A stretch of DNA of 64,000 nucleotides from an uncultured Acidobacteriota bacterium (GTDB lineage Bacteria > Acidobacteriota > Terriglobia > UBA7540). The DNA is taken from NCBI GenBank assembly GCA_963804995.1, contig CAWDSK010000003.1:96001-160000 (forward strand), given 5' to 3'. The position numbers were made by a program, and so were the translations under genes. A model generated the notes under the pieces. The model was not told the origin of the DNA. It did not search any database and saw only the letters and a program-made list of their open reading frames with translations. Shown here piece after piece: positions 41,171-51,540 of this stretch (positions are counted from its first letter, which is position 1; each line of letters opens with the position of its first letter).

Positions 41171-41458
41171 ATGGAATTTGAATGGGACGCCAAGAAAGCA
41201 GATTCGAACGTTGCGAAGCACGGCGTCACGTTCTCAGAAGCGATGACGGTGTTTGGGGACCCGCTGGAACTCGCGATTGCCGATCCAGAACACTCGGAGG
41301 ACGAATTCCGATTTCTCAGTATGGGCCAGTCGGCAATGGGACGCCTACTTGTAGTCGCCTACACTGAGCGCGAAGGCCGAACCCGAATCATCAACGCCCG
41401 GGAAGCGACTCCCCGAGAGCGGAGACAGTATGAATCAACACGTTCACCAAAACGATAA
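41171..41458 (+). CDS. BrnT-family toxin
   Basis: MEFEWDAKKADSNVAKHGVTFSEA, DPEHSEDEFR, RIINAREATPRER. Confidence 0.92.
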   Translation: MEFEWDAKKADSNVAKHGVTFSEAMTVFGDPLELAIADPEHSEDEFRFLSMGQSAMGRLLVVAYTEREGRTRIINAREATPRERRQYESTRSPKR

Positions 41459-41732
41459 CGACGAAATGCGGCCCGAGTACGACTTCTCGCACGGCGTTCG
41501 CGGGAAGCACTATGAGGCATACCGCGCCGGTACGAATGTGGTGTTTCTCGATCCCGATGTGGCCAAAGCGTTCGCCGATTCAGCTTCAGTCAATCAAGCC
41601 TTGCGCCTGCTCTTGCAGCTTGCCCGCACGAGCGCTCCCTTAGACATCCAATCTGGCAAGACGGTGCAGCCGAGTAACCGTGCCCCGCGCCGCGCCAAGA
41701 AGCCCAAGCCCCTTCGCGCCACTCGCGGGTAG
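41430..41732 (+). CDS. Cognate antitoxin (BrnA-like)
   Basis: EMRPEYDFS, VFLDPDVAKAF, VNQALR; overlaps brnT. Confidence 0.85.
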   Translation: MNQHVHQNDNDEMRPEYDFSHGVRGKHYEAYRAGTNVVFLDPDVAKAFADSASVNQALRLLLQLARTSAPLDIQSGKTVQPSNRAPRRAKKPKPLRATRG

Positions 41733-42320
41733 GCGCAGCAGGCAGTCTTGAATCTTGAATCCCGTGTCCCGCCTCTGACACCCGGCACCTGTGTTAGGCA
41801 GTAGGCAGCGGGCAGTAGGCAGTTTTTCCTAGCCCCCTGACACCCGGCACCGGACACCTTGCACTTAGCCCCCGAATCCCGAGTTCCGCACCTGGCACCC
41901 GACACCTGATACCTGCTTTTTCTTTCTCGCCACTCGCCACTAACCACTGGCCACTGTTCTTACCCGTTCGAAATGCCGCGGACCTCACACGGCAGAGGTC
42001 CGCGCTAGGCTTGCTTGCTGGCAATCGCCAGCCAGCGGCGGTGCATTGGTTATGCATCACCAATGCTAGGGAGCGCAAATCTACGCCGCTTGCCTGGCCT
42101 CTCAGTGCTGAAAAAGAATCAATCGGAAGATATGGAAAGAAACGGGTGACAAAGCCGCGGCCCACCGCTAGAATAAAGCGCCGTCGGCGGGGCGACCAGG
42201 GAAGCCGCGGGCCTCGAGATACGTTGGTGATCTTTTATCAATAAATTCGCGAGGAGCAGGCCGCATTTCTAGAGGGGCGGTCGAACGCACGGATTCATCA
42301 CTGTTCAGCTTCCCAAGGAG

Positions 42321-42954: not shown

Positions 42955-43014
42955 ACAATATCTTACAAGTCCAAGATATTGTGCTTGACTTTCTTACAGT
43001 AATCGACGTAAGAT
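42955..43014 (+). promoter_or_regulatory. Putative promoter/operator region of the six-gene operon
   Basis: ACAATATCTT-N8-AAGATATTGT (42955-42982); TTGACT(42985)-18 nt-TAAGAT(43009); TCTTAC-N10-GTAAGA (42992-43013). Confidence 0.6.
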
Positions 43015-43020
43015 TTGTTC

Positions 43021-43356
43021 ATGAATGCAGGAGAATTGACCCAAACACCGATTAAGACCCAACCCCAGGCAGTGCCAAGGATTGACCCTCTTGAGGTTCT
43101 GCGCGAGGTGCTCGAATTGCAACGCGAGAGTAGCCCGGAATTGGACGTCGAAGGGATGCTGGCCTTCGCGGTCGCAAATCCGACCACAGAAGTAGTGGAT
43201 TCGCTGGGCGCAGTAAGTATCGTTTGTGTTCTCTTCGGTGCGTACAAGCCTGACAATCTTATCCCGCAAAATCTTTTGACTCACGAGAACTTTAGCACGT
43301 TGAACGGACTAAGAAATGTTGTCAGAGAACTGAAGAAAAATCAAGGCAAACCATGA
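43021..43356 (+). CDS. Acyl-carrier-protein-like protein
   Basis: VDSLGAV phosphopantetheine-site motif and C-terminal ENFSTL helix; stop overlaps next start (ATGA). Confidence 0.7.
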   Translation: MNAGELTQTPIKTQPQAVPRIDPLEVLREVLELQRESSPELDVEGMLAFAVANPTTEVVDSLGAVSIVCVLFGAYKPDNLIPQNLLTHENFSTLNGLRNVVRELKKNQGKP

Positions 43357-44327
43357 TGTCACCTGTTCGTTTAACCGATCTCACTCTGGAAATCACAAAT
43401 GCCTGCCATCATCGATGCGTGCATTGCAGTACGTATGGTGGGATACCTCGCGAAAACGAACTGACCCAAGATGAGCGACTCGATGTTTTGCGGCAAGCTT
43501 GCGCACTTGGTCTAATAGAGCTGCGCTTGCTTGGAGGGGAGCCGCTCTTACGCAAGGAAGACACATTCGAACTACTTGCGGAAGCCAATCGGCTTGGCGT
43601 GAAAAAAGCTCTGATATACACTTCTGCCGCTGAGAACGACTTTGGGTGGCTGACGACGTTACGCAACTTTGCTCCCATGGAAGTCTCCGCCGAAGCGAGT
43701 ATATACTCGGCGACGCAAGCAGTACACGATGGAATCACGGTAAAACCGCTCTCATTTGAGCGGCTACTCTCCAATTCCAAAGAGGCAGTGCAGGTCGGAT
43801 TCGATTTGAATTGGAACTTCGTTTGGATGAAACCGAATTTTTGGGAATTGGGACCTGTAATAGCACTAGCCTCGAAGATTGGTATTAGAAGAGTGCGGAT
43901 CCTGCGCTTAATGCTGAATGGGCGGGCGCGAGAAAACAGGGACACGTTGGAACTGCCGGCCGAAATGGAAATCCAGTGCGAGACGATTCTTAATTTGTTA
44001 ACCTCTCGCTATCCGGACGTTTTCATAGCTCATTCGAAACCACTTGTATTTCAGCTTGGGAGAAGCAACCACGATCATGTGGCTTCCTGCAGCGCCGGTA
44101 AAGGCCAGATTATCCTGCAGGCAGACGGTAGAGTCCTTCCTTGCATCGGGATGAAGGACACGCCGCAGCTTGAAATTGGAAATGTACGCATCGAAACTAT
44201 CGAAGACATTTTCTCACGCGCTCGCGGAATGAATTTCCCAGGAATGTCACAAGAGTATCGGGAATGTCCGGCGATCCAATTTCAAAAAACGCCAGAACTA
44301 ATCCAACTAACTCCAGGGAGGATTTAG
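43353..44327 (+). CDS. Radical SAM protein with SPASM/twitch-like C-terminal domain
   Basis: LEITNACHHRCVHC (CX3CX2C), LLGGEPLL, CSAG...DGRVLPC, GNV, ECP. Confidence 0.93.
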   Translation: MMSPVRLTDLTLEITNACHHRCVHCSTYGGIPRENELTQDERLDVLRQACALGLIELRLLGGEPLLRKEDTFELLAEANRLGVKKALIYTSAAENDFGWLTTLRNFAPMEVSAEASIYSATQAVHDGITVKPLSFERLLSNSKEAVQVGFDLNWNFVWMKPNFWELGPVIALASKIGIRRVRILRLMLNGRARENRDTLELPAEMEIQCETILNLLTSRYPDVFIAHSKPLVFQLGRSNHDHVASCSAGKGQIILQADGRVLPCIGMKDTPQLEIGNVRIETIEDIFSRARGMNFPGMSQEYRECPAIQFQKTPELIQLTPGRI

Positions 44328-44329
44328 GA

Positions 44330-44767
44330 ATGTCACCAAAGAGGGACATTGAACGTACGCTTAGCAGTGATCAGGAGCGTGCCTATCTTGCCCAGAAACT
44401 CAGAGAGGCTCGCGAGTACCTGGGACTGTCGCAGGAATACGTCTCGCAGCAAACGAATATGACGCGGCCGGCCATTTCTGAAGCAGAGGCTGGCAGACGG
44501 AAGGTCGAGAGTCTTGAACTAAAAAGACTAGCAACCCTCTATGGCCGCCCCCTTAATTATTTCTTGCCGGATCAAAATGGGATTGATCTCGACGGGTCTC
44601 GCGACGGGGTTTCCGAAAAAATAAATAGTGATCAGACCGAAATAAAACTACGAAACCTAACGAGGGACTTGCCATCCGAAGATAGGGAAGAGATTATCCG
44701 ATTCGCCGAATACTTGCGCCACAAGAAACAAGTGTCACAAACGCGCCGGGGCGTTGCTGCAAGATAG
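44330..44767 (+). CDS. XRE-family HTH transcriptional regulator
   Basis: KLREAREYLGLSQEYVS...AISEAEAGRRKV...LATLYG. Confidence 0.92.
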   Translation: MSPKRDIERTLSSDQERAYLAQKLREAREYLGLSQEYVSQQTNMTRPAISEAEAGRRKVESLELKRLATLYGRPLNYFLPDQNGIDLDGSRDGVSEKINSDQTEIKLRNLTRDLPSEDREEIIRFAEYLRHKKQVSQTRRGVAAR

Positions 44768-44774
44768 GGATCCT

Positions 44775-45740
44775 ATGACTCGAGCCCAGTTGGTCACGGC
44801 TGCCAGCGGTGCAGCCTTGCTTGCCCATCGGAGGCACCATGTTGACCGCCAAAGGCGGATCGACGTGTTCGATATCCTCCGAGAGGTATCGAGCGAGGTT
44901 TTCTTTAGGCCGCTGCGAAAGGTGTGTGGTGCGTACCTTCCTAGTGACGGTCCTGTTCCTGCTGTCCTGATCAATTCGAATATGCCACTGAGTCGCCAAC
45001 GGTACACTGCTGCTCACGAGTTTGGCCATCTATTCTTAGGGCACAAAGTTGTAAGTCTTGATCAAGTAGTTGGCACCAGTTTTGAAGAACGTAAGAACTG
45101 GACCGATGAAGAGAACATCGCCGAAACGTTTGCTGCTTTCTTCTTAATGCCCCAGGGTTTAGTGGAGACCAGTCTACGTGAACTTAACGAAACGGAGATA
45201 ACCCCACAGACCGCTTACCTTCTGTCGCTGAAAATGGGCACTAGTTACTTGGCGACGGTCAATCACCTCCAAACTTTGAAGAAGCTGAATTATGCTGAGG
45301 CTGCCGAATTCCGAAAAATACAACCAAAAACGATAAAGGCGGAAATAATTCCCAGCGTTGCCAATAGGCACGACGTGTGGATTTTGGACGAGCGATGGAA
45401 TGATCAACCAATATACCCTGCGGTGGAGGACACGATTGTTGTTCGATTGGCTGAAACTCCCACTTCAGGGTATACGTGGGTTTGGCACAGGGACCCCGAA
45501 AGCCTTCGCGTCTTACAGGACGGATTCGCCGACGAACCCACACAGGAAATTGGGGGTGCCCGTGTACGCGAACTGGTAACGGAAGTATCGTCCGATGCCC
45601 ATGCTGAAAGAATCGATTTGGAACGGCGGCAACCGTGGGATGACAATGGCGAACCGTCAGCTCACTTCAGCGTGAATCTCTTCCCGCAGCAAATGAGGAA
45701 GAGCGGGCCTCTGGTCTTGCCGACGCTGGCCGCGAGCTGA
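44775..45740 (+). CDS. ImmA/IrrE-family metallopeptidase fused to chagasin-like (I42) cysteine-protease-inhibitor domain
   Basis: RQRYTAAHEFGH, EENIAETFAAFFLMP; C-terminal VRLAETPTSGYTW, IGG, RQPWD matching the three chagasin loops. Confidence 0.82.
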   Translation: MTRAQLVTAASGAALLAHRRHHVDRQRRIDVFDILREVSSEVFFRPLRKVCGAYLPSDGPVPAVLINSNMPLSRQRYTAAHEFGHLFLGHKVVSLDQVVGTSFEERKNWTDEENIAETFAAFFLMPQGLVETSLRELNETEITPQTAYLLSLKMGTSYLATVNHLQTLKKLNYAEAAEFRKIQPKTIKAEIIPSVANRHDVWILDERWNDQPIYPAVEDTIVVRLAETPTSGYTWVWHRDPESLRVLQDGFADEPTQEIGGARVRELVTEVSSDAHAERIDLERRQPWDDNGEPSAHFSVNLFPQQMRKSGPLVLPTLAAS

Positions 45741-45743
45741 ATT

Positions 45744-46418
45744 ATGCACATAAGTGTTCGTGGTGCACAAACTGGCGTAAAAGACCAATATGACCGACCA
45801 ACATGTGTTGCTTTCGCGGTAACTGCTCTTCATGAGTACACCCACGACGTGTTGAAGGAGCTCAAAAAGGCGTCCGAGATCGACCTCTCTGAGGAATTTT
45901 TGTATTATCATTGCAAGCGACTTGACGGGTTAGGACCGAATTCCACTGGGACAACGATTTCGGCTGCTTCCACGTCACTTGCAGCGGATGGGCAATCCCT
46001 TGAGAGTTTGTGCCCGTACAAGGTGTCGTGCCCACCGGGGTTAATTACTCCCCCAGATCCCGGCGCTTTTGCTGATGGAAAAGCCCGGCGCCTCTTGGGC
46101 CTTCAGCAGCTAAACCTCTCCCTGTCGAGCATCCAGAACTCTCTCACTCTTTCGAAGCCAGTAATCGCAGTGTTGGATTGGTTTTCTAACGCGTATGTCA
46201 CCCAACTTGGCCGAATCGAAATTCCACGGACAACGGACCGCCTCCTTGGACGGCATGCCGTACTGATAGTTGAACTTGAAGAGGAGCCACGGGCTGGATT
46301 GTGCTTGATCACTTTCAAGAATTCTTGGGGTGCTAAATGGGGCGATAGCGGCTATGGTAGCTTCGGATTGGATTACTTCAGTGCATATGCGCGAGAAATC
46401 TGGGGAGTGAGCACCTAA
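45744..46418 (+). CDS. Papain-like C1 cysteine peptidase
   Basis: VKDQYDRPTCVAFA (Gln/Cys), DLSEEFLY, GRHAVLIV (His), FKNSWGAKWGDSGYG (Asn). Confidence 0.92.
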   Translation: MHISVRGAQTGVKDQYDRPTCVAFAVTALHEYTHDVLKELKKASEIDLSEEFLYYHCKRLDGLGPNSTGTTISAASTSLAADGQSLESLCPYKVSCPPGLITPPDPGAFADGKARRLLGLQQLNLSLSSIQNSLTLSKPVIAVLDWFSNAYVTQLGRIEIPRTTDRLLGRHAVLIVELEEEPRAGLCLITFKNSWGAKWGDSGYGSFGLDYFSAYAREIWGVST

Positions 46419-46433
46419 AAGGAGAAGACCAAC

Positions 46434-47204
46434 TTGAGTAAGTTTTTTTCTTCGGCAACTTGCGCACATGCATGGGCCGACGCCATGGAGCACCTCATTG
46501 AATGTGAAGGGGGGAAGGATTTCAATCTTGTGATTGCGATCCAGAATCCGTGCGTTGAGATCCCAGAAGCAACGCGGGTTATAGATGAACTTGCTAAAGC
46601 CTGTGACCTAAAAGGCACGATGGAAAACGCAAACGCGATTTGGCCGTCGTTCTTCGCACGACCAAATAGGAAGAGCACTGAAGTGTTTGCTGACATTGAA
46701 CGCTTCGCGGTCCCGGCAATTAAGGCAGCGTGCAAGAATCGCCATGACTCCTATGTAGAGCGCCTAGTTGCTTGGCGAAGCGCAGATTCCAGCGAACCGG
46801 TTCCTCAGCTTCAGAACGTTTTGGCGCGACTTAAAAACGAGATTGGGAATCATGCCCCTAAGAGTTCGTCGTATGAAGTCTCAATTTATTCACCAGGTCT
46901 TGATGCGGGCTACATGAGTTTTCCATGTCTTTCTCACCTGTCCTTCAAATACGCTCACAATTGCGGCCTTCTTCATTTAACGGCCCTTTATCGGAATCAC
47001 GCCTACCTCAGCCACGCCTATGGAAATTTCATTGGATTGGGGAGGATGATGCAGTTTGCCTGCCGAGAGACGGGAACCCACCCAGGGGAACTCGTCTCAA
47101 TAAGCACCCACGCCGATTCAGAGATTGGTTCGGGGCGAAAATCTCGGACGCGTGAGGCGATTGTTCGCGTGAAGGAAATTTTATCCAAGCACCAGCAACC
47201 GTAG
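46434..47204 (+). CDS. Thymidylate-synthase-fold protein (divergent)
   Basis: FPCLSHLSFK, LHLTALYRNH, AYGNFIGL, GELVSISTHA follow the ThyA/hydroxymethylase core motif order; AAGGAG RBS. Confidence 0.8.
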   Translation: MSKFFSSATCAHAWADAMEHLIECEGGKDFNLVIAIQNPCVEIPEATRVIDELAKACDLKGTMENANAIWPSFFARPNRKSTEVFADIERFAVPAIKAACKNRHDSYVERLVAWRSADSSEPVPQLQNVLARLKNEIGNHAPKSSSYEVSIYSPGLDAGYMSFPCLSHLSFKYAHNCGLLHLTALYRNHAYLSHAYGNFIGLGRMMQFACRETGTHPGELVSISTHADSEIGSGRKSRTREAIVRVKEILSKHQQP

Positions 47205-47238
47205 CGCGGACCTGTTTTGCAGGTCCGCGGCTTTTTGT
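47205..47238 (+). terminator. Rho-independent terminator (GTAG-led hairpin)
   Basis: CGCGGACCTG-TTTTG-CAGGTCCGCG then GCTTTTT right after the operon's last stop. Confidence 0.75.
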
Positions 47239-47554: not shown

Positions 47555-47782
47555 ATGACGATCACGGCAAAATATGAAGATGGCGTCTTCAAGCCCTTGG
47601 AGAACGTGCGCATCATCGAAGGGACGATAGTTGAGGTCCGCGTGCCCTCCGACGCCGGCCGTCCCGAGAACAAGGCGCAGTCGGTTGGGGATTTCGCCTT
47701 CTACGGCATGTGGAAGGACCGGACGGACATCGGTGACAGCGTGGAATACATCAGCAATCTCCGTCGTAATCTTCGGGGCTGA
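47555..47782 (+). CDS. DUF104/AF2212-like antitoxin
   Basis: MTITAKYEDGVFKPLE, FYGMWKDR. Confidence 0.85.
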   Translation: MTITAKYEDGVFKPLENVRIIEGTIVEVRVPSDAGRPENKAQSVGDFAFYGMWKDRTDIGDSVEYISNLRRNLRG

Positions 47783-47802
47783 AAGCTTCTTTCCAACTTT
47801 CC

Positions 47803-47885
47803 ATGCCTTACTTGATAGACAGCGATGTCCTGATTGACATATCAGCGCCATCACGGGATTGCGCCTGGAAATTCCTGGTTACTAG
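47803..47885 (+). pseudogene. VapC/PIN toxin remnant with internal deletion
   Basis: PIN start MPYLIDSDVLID joined out of frame to PIN-like end SAITGLRLEIPGY*. Confidence 0.65.
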
Positions 47886-48225
47886 CGCGACTTTGCCTTC
47901 CACCCTCCAAAACCGGTTAGTACCGCGCGGCGACGCCGCAACCAAAATCTTGGTCCAGGTCCAGGCCAAAGCGCCCAGACTTTCAGCTACACCGCGCCGC
48001 GAATTCCAAGCGATCCACCTGGCTGGTTAGACGCCAAGCCATGGACGTGCCCCGTGCACTCAAGCTCCCCGGGGTTCTGGGAATCAGCTCCTGGGTTGCC
48101 GCCCCAGCGTTTACCGATCCACGCAACTCTGGACGGTTGACGGGGGAAAACAAATCACCTGGCCGGTAACGGCAGGGGTGCGAGGCGCCTCCAGTCCGGC
48201 TTATTTTAACGCCTATGGAGGACCC

Positions 48226-50791: not shown

Positions 50792-51540
50792 CGTCTCGTA
50801 GGGGCATAGGCGTTAACCTAAGAGTTCGATGCGTCCGAAAGCCCGCAAAGCGGGCGTAAGGTCGTAGCCCACTGCGTAAGCGGTGGGTAAAGAAATCGTG
50901 TAAAATTCCCGCCCAGCCCCGGAGGGGCGAAAGGACATGTCGCACACCTACACCAACCTGCTAACGCACGTTATTTTCAGCACCAAGTACCGCGAGCCAT
51001 TGATTACCTCGGCACTCCAAGACGATCTGCTCGGCTACGTGGGCGGAATTGTGCGCGAACTGGGCGGGGCGCTCCGGGCCGCGAACGCCCGACCGGACCA
51101 CGTGCACCTGCTCTGCTCGCTGCCGCCCACGGTTGGGACGGCGGACGCCTTGCGGGTCGTGAAGACCAATTCCTCACGTTGGCTACACCGCAGCCGGGGT
51201 TTTCCCCGATTCGACTGGCAAACCGGCTATGGAGCGTTCAGCGTCAGTCATTCCCTCGCACCCGCCGTTGTGCGGTACATTCGCGAGCAGGAGAAACACC
51301 ATCGCCGCGTAACGTTTCAGGAAGAATTCATAGACTTTCTGAAGAAGAACGGCATTGCGTATGATGAGCGCTACATTTGGGCGTGAATCCTTTCGCCCCT
51401 GGCGGGGCTTAGGGGAGAGAGGCGCGTCTTTTCCCACGGCTTACGCCGTGGGCTACGACCTTTCGCCCGCTTTGCGGGCTGTCAGCATTTCTGAGAGTTA
51501 GGTTAACGCCTATGCCCACGAGGGGTGCCCCTACGAGACG
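50792..51540. mobile_element. Y1 tnpA unit flanked by mirrored REP arrays and nested inverted repeats
   Basis: Mirror arms CGTCTCGTAGGGGCA/TGCCCCTACGAGACG, CATAGGCGTTAACCTAA/TTAGGTTAACGCCTATG, AGCCCGCAAAGCGGGCG/CGCCCGCTTTGCGGGCT, GGGGCGAAAGGA/TCCTTTCGCCCC. Confidence 0.8.
50937..51386 (+). CDS. tnpA: IS200/IS605-family Y1 (HUH) transposase
   Basis: HVIFSTKYR, PDHVHLL (HUH), WQTGYGAFSVS, RYIREQEKHH. Confidence 0.93.
   Translation: MSHTYTNLLTHVIFSTKYREPLITSALQDDLLGYVGGIVRELGGALRAANARPDHVHLLCSLPPTVGTADALRVVKTNSSRWLHRSRGFPRFDWQTGYGAFSVSHSLAPAVVRYIREQEKHHRRVTFQEEFIDFLKKNGIAYDERYIWA

Follow-up and report, generated by a model that had tools for sequence, protein, structure and literature searches.

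What does an inhibitor of papain-like proteases do when it is built into a bacterial metallopeptidase, and is the papain-family peptidase encoded next to it the target? The locus that raises this question lies in a 64,000-nucleotide stretch of an uncultured Acidobacteriota genome (Terriglobia; GCA_963804995.1, contig CAWDSK010000003.1), which we call the window. A preliminary description of this DNA, made from the letters alone, had reported a HEFGH peptidase that ends in a beta domain and, behind it, a C1 peptidase gene. The pair sits within a larger cassette, a context missing from that description, and the coordinates of its features are collected in Table 1.

Table 1. Features of the cassette and its upstream neighbor, in window coordinates
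Feature	Coordinates	Strand	Basis
DUF1643 protein, 178 aa	42321..42857	+	Pfam PF07799 2.8e-39; phrog_3230 5.6e-54
Promoter-like site, TTGACT + 18 nt + TAAGAT, with TCTTAC/GTAAGA inverted motifs	42955..43014	+	Consensus scan
Small carrier-protein-like gene	43015..43356	+	Profile matches to carrier proteins
Radical SAM/SPASM enzyme, 324 aa, CX3CX2C motif	43353..44327	+	Pfam
XRE-family HTH repressor	44330..44767	+	Pfam HTH_3 8.5e-10; PADLOC capH 1.2e-5; RmrA N-terminal part
M78 (ImmA/IrrE/CapP-type) metallopeptidase fused to chagasin I42 domain	44775..45740	+	Pfam, PDB profile, AF2; PADLOC capP 1.3e-17
M78 Pfam match; I42 Pfam match	~44898-45182; ~45423-45674 (within 44775..45740)	+	
Cytoplasmic papain-family (C1) peptidase, 224 aa, catalytic set intact	45744..46418	+	Pfam, alignment, PDB profile
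Thymidylate-synthase-fold enzyme, 256 aa	46434..47204	+	Foldseek, AF2, TIGR03283 match below cut-off
Terminator-like hairpin, 11-bp stem then T run, operon end	47205..47229	+	

A metallopeptidase fused to a chagasin-type domain

The fusion ORF extends from 44754 to 45740 and encodes 328 residues, whose numbering we use here; ATG 44775 is its most likely start, because the homologues open with MTRAQL. Pfam Peptidase_M78 matched residues 49 to 143 (40.3 bits; cut-off, 22) and Inhibitor_I42 (PF09394) matched residues 224 to 307 (39.0 bits; gathering cut-off, 27.2), and both domain assignments of the preliminary description were thus upheld. It had also been right about coordinates and motifs: HEFGH occupies residues 88 to 92, and the C-terminal domain carries ETPTSGYTW at 234 to 242, IGG at 266 to 268 and RQPWD at 292 to 296.

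The loop motifs of I42 inhibitors are NPTTGY-like, GxGG-like and RPW. The loops of the fusion (ETPTSGYTW, EIGGA and RQPWD) align with NPSTGYAW and SRPWE of EhICP2. HExxH and the third-ligand Glu were kept in all 81 fusion proteins that we compared, E120 being invariant. In the same set the loop 2 residues were E in 80, G in 79, Y in 74 and W in 80 proteins; loop 4 kept its G in 78; and loop 6 had R in 63, P in 59 and W in 68. A profile of the I42 region matched 79 of the 80 related fusion proteins.

A profile of the whole fusion family matched solved I42 proteins, namely amoebiasin-2 (3m86, 1.2e-15), the P. aeruginosa ICP (2wgn_B, 2.5e-12) and chagasin (2nnr/2nqd, 3e-12), and its N-terminal part matched IrrE and CapP. 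The AlphaFold2 (AF2) model of the fusion (pLDDT 87.4, pTM 0.86) superposed on EhICP2/chagasin over about 110 columns at an rmsd of 2.2 to 3.1 Å and a target TM of 0.77 to 0.88 (3m86, 0.84 to 0.88; 2nnr, 0.82; 2nqd_A, 0.79), which bears out the earlier suggestion of a chagasin fold. The model also matched IrrE and CapP 7t5t, the CapP match covering 183 columns only. Judged by motifs and model, the M78 domain appears to be an active zinc peptidase of the type that cleaves repressors (ImmA/IrrE/CapP), and by the same predictive evidence the I42 domain adopts a chagasin fold in which none of the three protease-binding loops is missing.

Repressor-cleaving M78 peptidases are known to act as switches in prophages, ICEs, the radiation response and CBASS. 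The window resembles the CapH/CapP, DdrO/IrrE (PprI) and ImmR/ImmA systems in that an XRE HTH gene lies directly 5' of an M78 gene with HExxH and a downstream Glu. The PADLOC capH and capP models matched the XRE protein and the fusion, and the M78 domain matched CapP (7t5t) and IrrE (3dte/8slm) in both sequence and fold. It differs from CapP and IrrE in having a chagasin domain in place of GAF, and its cassette differs from those of CapH/CapP, IrrE and ImmA in adding an obligatory papain-like partner gene downstream. With the chagasin/ICP inhibitors (MEROPS I42, PF09394; T. cruzi chagasin, EhICP2 and P. aeruginosa ICP) the fusion has an Ig-like fold in common, as well as all three loop motifs. 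Known bacterial ICPs are free-standing and exported; here the domain is predicted to be cytoplasmic, is fused to a metallopeptidase and is genetically coupled to its own putative target.

The preliminary description had wired the pair to a sensor, with activation of the IrrE domain and a possible role of single-stranded DNA. According to PMC13228613, the ssDNA-binding groove of CapP and IrrE is formed by the peptidase and the C-terminal GAF domain. The C terminus of the fusion has no GAF domain, its position being occupied by the chagasin fold, and the sequence has no cysteine-switch loop, with no Cys between H92 and E120. Attachment to a metallopeptidase of the repressor-cleaving type therefore stands, whereas IrrE-style or ssDNA activation loses its basis, because the GAF domain and the cysteine-switch loop are both missing.

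The papain-family partner

A gap of 3 nt separates the fusion gene from the C1 gene, which matched Pfam Peptidase_C1 at 36.0 bits (cut-off, 20.7). Residues Q15, R18, C21, H171, N193 and W195 were the same in all 31 sequences of the alignment. A profile of the family, whose members are 210 to 250 aa long, matched 3ois in the PDB (1.2e-27) as well as Der p 1 and cathepsins K, L and H. C1A peptidases typically have a signal peptide and an inhibitory propeptide; the window's C1 peptidase has neither, because only 14 of its 224 residues precede the catalytic Gln (Q15). The gene had been described earlier as lying 3 nt downstream, with no obvious leader and intact at Q/C/H/N, and that description holds. 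The product looks like an active, leaderless papain-family peptidase, and it would be translationally coupled to the fusion on the same message.

We looked at 80 related loci from many phyla and found C1 directly 3' of the fusion in 75. Five loci lacked a full C1 after the fusion. One of these (L061) stops at a contig edge and is not assessable, giving 75 of 79; in L058 a remnant of 33 aa is left of C1; and C1 is absent from L013, L022 and L036. The I42 domain is retained in L022 and L036, and L013 was the only fusion relative in which the first round of profile searching found no I42 domain. The distance from fusion stop to C1 start was between −4 and +5 nt in 70 of the 75 pairs, with overlapping stop and start codons in 48. 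The pairing is more than a chance neighborhood, and the cytoplasmic pair of protease and inhibitor domain proposed in the preliminary description is real and conserved.

A mirror-tree test gave no specific I42-C1 coevolution signal. All cassette parts correlated with one another at r 0.83 to 0.91, and the partial correlation of I42 with C1 (0.28) was lower than that of C1 (0.39) or of M78 (0.45) with the thymidylate synthase (TS)-like enzyme. The comparison of I42 with C1 is uninformative, because the whole cassette is coinherited. No PADLOC model matched C1 or the TS-like protein.

The cassette, its variants and its spread

The conserved core of the cassette consists of the carrier-like protein, the XRE protein, the M78-I42 fusion, C1 and the TS-fold enzyme. 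Usual extras in the relatives are MazG/MazG-C, a 5-hmdU DNA kinase (HMUDK), a 4'-phosphopantetheinyl transferase (PPTase) and UDG-like or dCTP-deaminase-like genes. Among the 80 loci we counted TS-like neighbors in 74, MazG_C-type neighbors in 50, HMUDK in 43 and PPTase in about 40; MazG-C and/or HMUDK occurred in 66. The XRE gene lies directly 5' of the fusion in 78 loci, and its product is the presumed substrate of the M78 domain. In the window its likely start is ATG 44330, within an ORF that opens at 44264.

The window holds a Terriglobia variant of the cassette, with a radical SAM/SPASM gene and a neighboring DUF1643 gene but without the kinase; its genome (92% complete) had no match to HMUDK (PF18723) or MazG_C anywhere. 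The radical SAM gene, whose first 4 nt lie within the carrier-like gene, was seen only in loci L001 to L004 and, downstream, in L006. Its product matched Pfam Radical_SAM (2.7e-13) and SPASM (9.4e-6), and its best NCBIfam match was PqqE at 95.6 bits, far under the cut-off of 381. The DUF1643 gene occurs only in L001 to L004, being an upstream neighbor only in the window's own clade. Membership of DUF1643 in the UDG-like superfamily, as a replacement for the UDG-like neighbor of other loci, was considered and dropped: hhalign, run on shallow alignments, gave a probability of 0.8%, and no PDB entry matched.

The TS-like enzyme matched TIGR03283 at 37.9 bits (cut-off, 174.55). Its invariant residues are Y107, R110, C165, Y186, R187 and N198, and Foldseek with its AF2 model (pLDDT 93.5) found thymidylate synthases (E 6.6e-11), the CMP hydroxymethylase MilA and a phage dCMP hydroxylase. 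In an alignment with TS the nucleophile Cys (PCL) is conserved, as are the Arg that binds phosphate and the Asn that reads the base, and the TS fold is kept. On these predictions the enzyme is a member of the TS superfamily and not a canonical ThyA.

One promoter-like site and one terminator are common to all six genes of the window's cassette. The element TGCTTGACTTTCTTACA is invariant across the window and loci L001 to L004 despite differing flanks, and the region of the promoter-like site is a candidate operator of the XRE repressor, the promoter itself being a consensus match only. The carrier-like ORF that follows starts with TTG 43015, ATG 43021 being the likelier start. A second copy of the terminator-like hairpin is found at 41977-42004. 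We considered the two hairpins as specific borders of a mobile element and rejected this, since both belong to a REP-like family that is spread over the whole 7.55-Mb genome in 79 copies. BrnT-type and AF2212-type small modules flank the window's cassette.

The cassette is widespread, mobile and apparently unstudied. Clustering, at 50% identity, of the proteins that matched the fusion at E 1e-30 or better gave at least 634 clusters, the best 150 being nearly all full-length fusions. Matches were found in 9 of 133 genomes of the window's family and in 4 of 29 of its own genus. A quick tree showed intermixed phyla and identical proteins across three alphaproteobacterial families; one copy lies on a plasmid record (L021), and the GC content of the cassette is 0.50 to 0.53, against about 0.59 in its flanks. 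A phage origin was rejected, as the fused form was present in only 1 of 19 viral-collection loci, at a contig end. Our literature search found no published description of the cassette, an earlier one (e.g., Iyer 2013 or Burroughs 2015) being possible, and nothing relevant on chagasin with ImmA, on chagasin in phage defense or on TS-like with papain-like and COG2856.

A related validated system is DS-4 ("NTTI"; DefensePredictor, E. coli), which, according to PMC13092281, comprises TS, dNMP kinase, HMUDK, NDT/TIR-like and Nmad2 proteins (Table S8) and protects E. coli from phage. The two have in common a TS-fold gene in a mobile nucleotide-modifying cassette, and HMUDK is common to most relatives of the window's cassette. 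DS-4 differs in having the dNMP kinase, NDT/TIR-like and Nmad2 genes and in lacking XRE, M78, I42 and C1, names that do not occur in the DefensePredictor supplementary files searched. The window's own cassette falls outside the DS-4 composition, sharing only the TS-fold gene; its likeness to DS-4 comes down to that fold because its genome lacks HMUDK and MazG_C.

A proposed two-protease switch and its alternatives

We favor, at roughly even odds (a probability of about 0.5), a reading in which XRE, M78-I42 and C1 form an inducible two-protease switch that gates a nucleotide-directed cargo, in the window the carrier-like protein, the radical SAM/SPASM enzyme and the TS-fold enzyme. The XRE repressor would shut the operon at the TCTTAC/GTAAGA promoter until, upon some signal, the M78 domain cleaved it. 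The chagasin domain would bind C1 at 1:1 and plug its active-site cleft; C1 would become active only once the fusion had been consumed, cleaved or out-titrated, and the freed protease would be either the effector or an activator of the cargo. Binding of C1 by the I42 domain is quite likely, and cleavage of the XRE protein by the M78 domain is likely too. Because fusion and C1 would be made at about 1:1, a release step must be postulated, none being visible. An order in which M78 activation precedes the release of C1 is doubtful. A role in defense or conflict is suggested by the patchy distribution, with its horizontal spread, and by the parts in common with DS-4, which is validated against phage. 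Such a role is slightly favored, and the cassette would probably act in phage defense by altering DNA building blocks.

The preliminary description had proposed a toxin-antitoxin-like logic. As a self-contained or abortive trio, C1 would be the toxin, M78-I42 the antitoxin and XRE the autoregulator, while the nucleotide genes would be mere frequent neighbors or would make up a system of their own that this regulator also controls. Stand-alone XRE/M78-I42/C1 trios with full flanks do occur, at 3 of the 80 loci (L008, L014 and L018), and C1 is the only candidate output there, with no TS-like or kinase gene present; L008 sits between hsdM and hsdR of a type I R-M system. Such loci had at least two origins in the quick tree, and the BrnT-type and AF2212-type neighbors in the window fit the same logic. 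However, the trio-only loci look like reductions, because they are nested among full cassettes in that tree, and the TS-like gene, a near-constant neighbor, coevolves as tightly as the parts of the trio do. The six window genes, moreover, lie between a single promoter-like site and a single terminator. Trios thus exist, but the pair is not an isolated unit, given its TS-fold, MazG-C and HMUDK neighbors, and a self-contained trio is unlikely to explain the family.

The cassette might instead be a pathway of biosynthesis or self-DNA modification rather than a defense switch. The carrier would hold a thioester-bound group on which the papain-fold enzyme would act as hydrolase or transferase, the TS-fold, radical SAM and kinase enzymes would build a modified pyrimidine, and I42 would merely tune the papain-fold enzyme. 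The carrier-like protein had no Pfam match, but its profile matched the aminoacyl carrier proteins 4h2s_C (2.6e-5) and 4h2w_C as well as ACPs and a PCP. S63, in a VDSL motif, is the sole invariant column among 26 homologues, and a PPTase gene adjoins the carrier-like gene in other loci. The TS-fold enzyme keeps its nucleophile, and PMC5889632 gives 5-HMUDK and a TS-type hydroxymethylase as the core of phage thymidine hypermodification, with this enzyme pair in the clusters of phiW-14, SP10, ViI and M6 and a radical SAM enzyme in those of M6-like phages. In contrast to these clusters, the present cassette is cellular, repressor controlled and putatively protease gated, and no aGPT-Pplase was found among the annotated neighbor families of its loci. 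XRE/M78 and protease-inhibitor control would be unusual for housekeeping modification, C1 has lost none of the papain residues, oxyanion Gln and Trp included, and the distribution is patchy even within one genus. Because only 1 of the 19 viral-collection matches carries the fused form, the cassette is not a phage modification module. We consider a role in biosynthesis or self-DNA modification improbable.

C1 could also be the input of the switch and not its output. Occupancy of I42 by C1 would then set M78 activity in a guard-type sensor, and a phage factor that engaged, inhibited or was cut by C1 would alter the complex and turn M78 on, with loss of the repressor and induction of the cargo. 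The position of I42 suits this arrangement, since the regulatory groove of CapP and IrrE lies between peptidase and GAF (PMC13228613); so does the missing cysteine-switch loop, and the pTM of the fusion model suggests that its two domains are held in a fixed arrangement. No connection between C1 and a phage factor is apparent, however, and the three trios would sense without any output, so we give this possibility little weight. It is more improbable still that infection is sensed by the protease-inhibitor complex itself, with C1 docked on the GAF-replacing chagasin domain as bait or guard. A phage protein that bound C1, blocked it or was its substrate would then alter the complex, free M78 to attack the repressor and fire a nucleotide-poisoning cargo.

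At this locus, a protease-inhibitor domain has taken over the place of the sensor domain in an M78 switch, and a cytoplasmic papain-like protein is its dedicated partner. If the protease is gated by the inhibitor, as in the two-protease switch that we favor, the arrangement would represent a new wiring of a proteolytic cascade into bacterial immunity and a rare endogenous cytosolic regulator of the chagasin type in bacteria. The fusion also offers a way into a family of nucleotide-modifying cassettes that is large and unstudied and has parts related to those of DS-4, a recently validated system. Cultured carriers, which include Mesorhizobium, Devosia, Sphingomonas sp. Root710 and Paenarthrobacter, make the fusion-C1 cassette testable.

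The chagasin domain of the M78 peptidase and its C1 neighbor

The preliminary description had placed a metallopeptidase with a chagasin-like inhibitor domain beside the papain-family protease that it could inhibit. Its observations held as a whole: the coordinates, the 3-nt gap between the fusion and C1 open reading frames (ORFs), the ATG at 44775 and the motifs were all present (in 328-aa ORF numbering, HEFGH at 88 to 92, ETPTSGYTW at 234 to 242, IGG at 266 to 268, and RQPWD at 292 to 296). That ATG is the likely start of the fusion, since homologues open at the Met of MTRAQL. The Pfam profiles for both domains scored above cut-off (see the table).

Three routes, namely profile, alignment and AlphaFold2 model, identified the C-terminal domain as a chagasin domain. 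A 21-member family profile matched the solved I42 proteins amoebiasin-2 (3m86, 1.2e-15), Pseudomonas aeruginosa ICP (2.5e-12) and chagasin (3e-12), and its N-terminal part matched IrrE (4e-13) and CapP (1e-8). When EhICP2 was aligned with the window's I42 domain alone, NPSTGYAW paired with ETPTSGYTW and SRPWE with RQPWD. The model of the fusion (pLDDT 87.4, pTM 0.86) superposed on EhICP2 and on chagasin, including the chagasin of the cathepsin L complex (target TM 0.77 to 0.88, rmsd 2.2 to 3.1 Å), while CapP (7t5t) and IrrE/PprI matched its N-terminal two thirds. The earlier ground for refutation, a C-terminal domain of another fold, therefore does not hold. Fusions from Actinomycetota (L010, L022, L035, L057, L059, and L071) were 436 to 501 aa long and the I42 profile matched them piecewise, suggesting that a large insertion lies within or after the chagasin domain.

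In the C1 protein, residue 15 is the oxyanion Gln and residue 21 the Cys, leaving no room for a signal peptide or propeptide, neither of which had been obvious in the preliminary description. Residues Q15, R18, C21, H171, N193, and W195 were invariant in an alignment of 31 C1 proteins. All 81 aligned fusion proteins keep HExxH and the Glu that serves as third ligand, and the chagasin loop residues are kept in 59 to 80 of them. Protease activity and the integrity of the inhibitor surface are thus both under selection.

We found 88 relatives among about 5.8 billion protein sequences: 72 had both Pfam domains, 12 M78 alone and 4 I42 alone, several of the single-domain matches being short pieces. 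A genome scan with one genome per species gave at least 599 pattern matches; 550 of those listed code for a relative, and from these we took the best 80. A C1 gene lay directly 3′ of the fusion in 75 of these 80 loci (best of at least 550). The stop-to-start distance was −4 to +5 nt in 70 of the 75 pairs, with overlaps of 4 nt in 35 and of 1 nt in 13. The remaining five loci comprised a contig edge (L061), a 33-residue C1 remnant (L058) and three with none (L013, L022, and L036); L013 also stands alone among the best 80 in that its M78 protein went unmatched by I42 in the first round of the profile search. A mirror-tree test did not single out the I42-C1 pair.

The surrounding cassette

A larger cassette surrounds the fusion/C1 pair, which forms its middle. 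To map the 80 loci we used the window's proteins together with neighboring families; the presence of the fusion in all 80 follows from the construction of the scan.

Features of the window and components of the cassette (counts are loci among the best 80 of at least 550)
Feature	Position in window	Strand	Match	Loci
BrnT-type toxin gene, then overlapping 100-aa ORF	41171-41732		PF04365, 6.1e-25	
Short direct repeats	41797-41907			
Hairpin copies	41977-42004; 47205-47229			
Carrier-like small ORF 5′ of HTH	43015-43356		4h2s_C, 2.6e-5	38 (plus 7 of divergent form)
Radical SAM/SPASM gene	43353-44327			
XRE HTH				78
M78-I42 fusion	44754/44775-45740	+	Peptidase_M78, 40.3 bits (cut-off 22); Inhibitor_I42, 39.0 bits (cut-off 27.2)	80
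C1 peptidase	45744-46418	+	Peptidase_C1, 36.0 bits (cut-off 20.7)	75
Thymidylate synthase (TS)-fold gene	46434-47204			74
AF2212-like small protein, then 75-aa ORF	47555-48030		PF01954, 9.9e-10	
IS200-like Y1 transposase gene	50937-51386		PF01797, 1.4e-20	
MazG with MazG_C			PF18722	50
5-hmdU DNA kinase (HMUDK)			PF18723	43
Either kinase				66
4′-Phosphopantetheinyl transferase				about 40
UDG-superfamily gene				22
dCTP-deaminase-like gene				16
Large metallophosphatase				14

The small-ORF profile matched aminoacyl and acyl carrier proteins, which fits the neighboring phosphopantetheinyl transferase; the single invariant column of its alignment is the Ser in VDSL. The TS-fold protein keeps the nucleophile Cys, Arg and Asn, the last at the alignment position of the base-reading Asn in thymidylate synthase, and its model (pLDDT 93.5) matched thymidylate synthases, MilA and phage dCMP hydroxylase. 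It scored far below the equivalog cut-off and is therefore assigned to the superfamily rather than to a specific reaction.

The window and four loci from Terriglobia/Acidobacteriota (L001 to L004) formed one clade in a quick tree (support of 99) and have the same gene order: DUF1643, carrier-like ORF, radical SAM/SPASM, XRE, M78-I42, C1, TS-fold. A promoter-like consensus match sits directly 5′ of the carrier-like ORF inside the block TGCTTGACTTTCTTACA, which does not vary among the five sequences and has TCTTAC/GTAAGA inverted motifs on its flanks, and a strong terminator-like hairpin lies 3′ of the TS-fold gene. From these consensus matches and their conservation, we infer that the stretch of six genes between 43015 and 47204 may be a single autoregulated operon. 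A relative of the radical SAM/SPASM gene (5e-21) occurs 3′ of a metallophosphatase gene in a distant Dehalococcoidia locus (L006:7260-8348). Since it accompanies the cassette there also, it may be a recurrent accessory part. Neither HMUDK nor MazG_C had a match anywhere in the window's 7.55-Mb, 92%-complete genome. In five to six loci (L020:10245-12586, L031 to L033, and L075:308-3712), caspase-like (Peptidase_C14) and alpha/beta-hydrolase genes adjoin the cassette as a second protease-type module.

The cassette region has a GC content of 0.50 to 0.53, versus about 0.59 in its surroundings, and is bounded by the BrnT-type and AF2212-like genes, with housekeeping genes farther out. The 100-aa ORF had no family match and is presumably the antitoxin of BrnT; the 75-aa ORF had no Pfam match and possibly forms a degraded antitoxin/toxin pair with the AF2212-like gene. 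Copies of the hairpin CGCGGACCT...AGGTCCGCG, of which the genome holds 79, bracket the cassette, and the Y1 transposase could be the REP-associated transposase. The stretch 5′ of DUF1643 has no convincing ORFs and contains two copies of GGCAGTAGGCAG and a 19-nt unit whose two copies are 48 nt apart.

Distribution

A match at an E value of 1e-20 or better was present in 9 of the 133 genomes from the window's taxonomic family and in 4 of the 29 from its own genus. Of the nine, seven are full-length, and two (the unpublished G032 among them) span the M78 part alone. Searching 1.84 billion cluster representatives with a profile gave 634 at 1e-30 or better, and nearly all of the best 150 were full-length fusions. 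Phyla were mixed in the quick tree. Identical fusion proteins shared by three alphaproteobacterial families, as the genomes are classified (L076, L077, and L079), together with a copy of the cassette on a Devosia plasmid record (L021), are signs of recent horizontal transfer. In a viral collection, the fused form occurred in 1 of 19 matching loci, with the whole cassette, at a contig end. This distribution marks the cassette as cellular, accessory and spread by horizontal transfer.

A possible two-protease switch

The XRE/M78 pair of the window matched the PADLOC models for capH and capP. According to PMC13228613, CapP combines peptidase and HTH-like domains with a C-terminal GAF domain; ssDNA is bound in the groove between peptidase and GAF, and many members have a cysteine-switch loop. 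The window's fusion, in contrast, has a chagasin domain at the GAF position and no Cys in the corresponding loop, so the activation of an IrrE domain that had been suggested, with an ssDNA assay, lacks a structural basis. M78 is most likely regulated by way of the chagasin domain and C1, or else in some new manner. Of the earlier interpretation, the pair and its cytoplasmic location stand; the sensor logic is unsupported, and the cassette context had been overlooked.

Our best reading of XRE, M78-I42 and C1 is a two-protease switch. The operon would be kept off by the repressor, which the M78 domain would remove; the chagasin domain, produced 1:1 with C1 from the coupled message, would keep C1 inactive, and C1 would become active once the fusion was lost or outnumbered. 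Three loci with full flanks (L008, L014, and L018, among the best 80 of at least 550) carry this trio without TS-fold or kinase genes. There C1 is the sole possible output, which supports the earlier idea of C1 as an effector; the rival in which C1 is instead the sensor input has to be weighed against these loci. They also bear on a second rival, that the trio is a pure toxin-antitoxin-like unit; the quick tree nests them within groups of full cassettes, so that they look like reductions of these. In the Chloroflexota locus (L008:3681-10908), the trio alone is inserted between the type I restriction-modification genes hsdM and hsdR. The third rival would give C1 a biosynthetic role on the carrier protein.

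PMC13092281 describes DS-4, which DefensePredictor validated against phage and which in Escherichia coli comprises TS, dNMP kinase, HMUDK, Nmad2 and an NDT/TIR-like protein (Table S8). Its predicted defenses include MazG, MazG-C, UDG, and dUTPase systems. In 10 of its supplementary files, Inhibitor_I42, PF09394 and chagasin do not occur, and the prefix "Peptidase_C1" has six matches, including an unrelated Peptidase_C107 row. We found no description of the M78-I42/C1 arrangement in the literature; two comparative-genomics papers might have one. The proposed switch sits within a widespread, nucleotide-directed cassette that is apparently undescribed so far.
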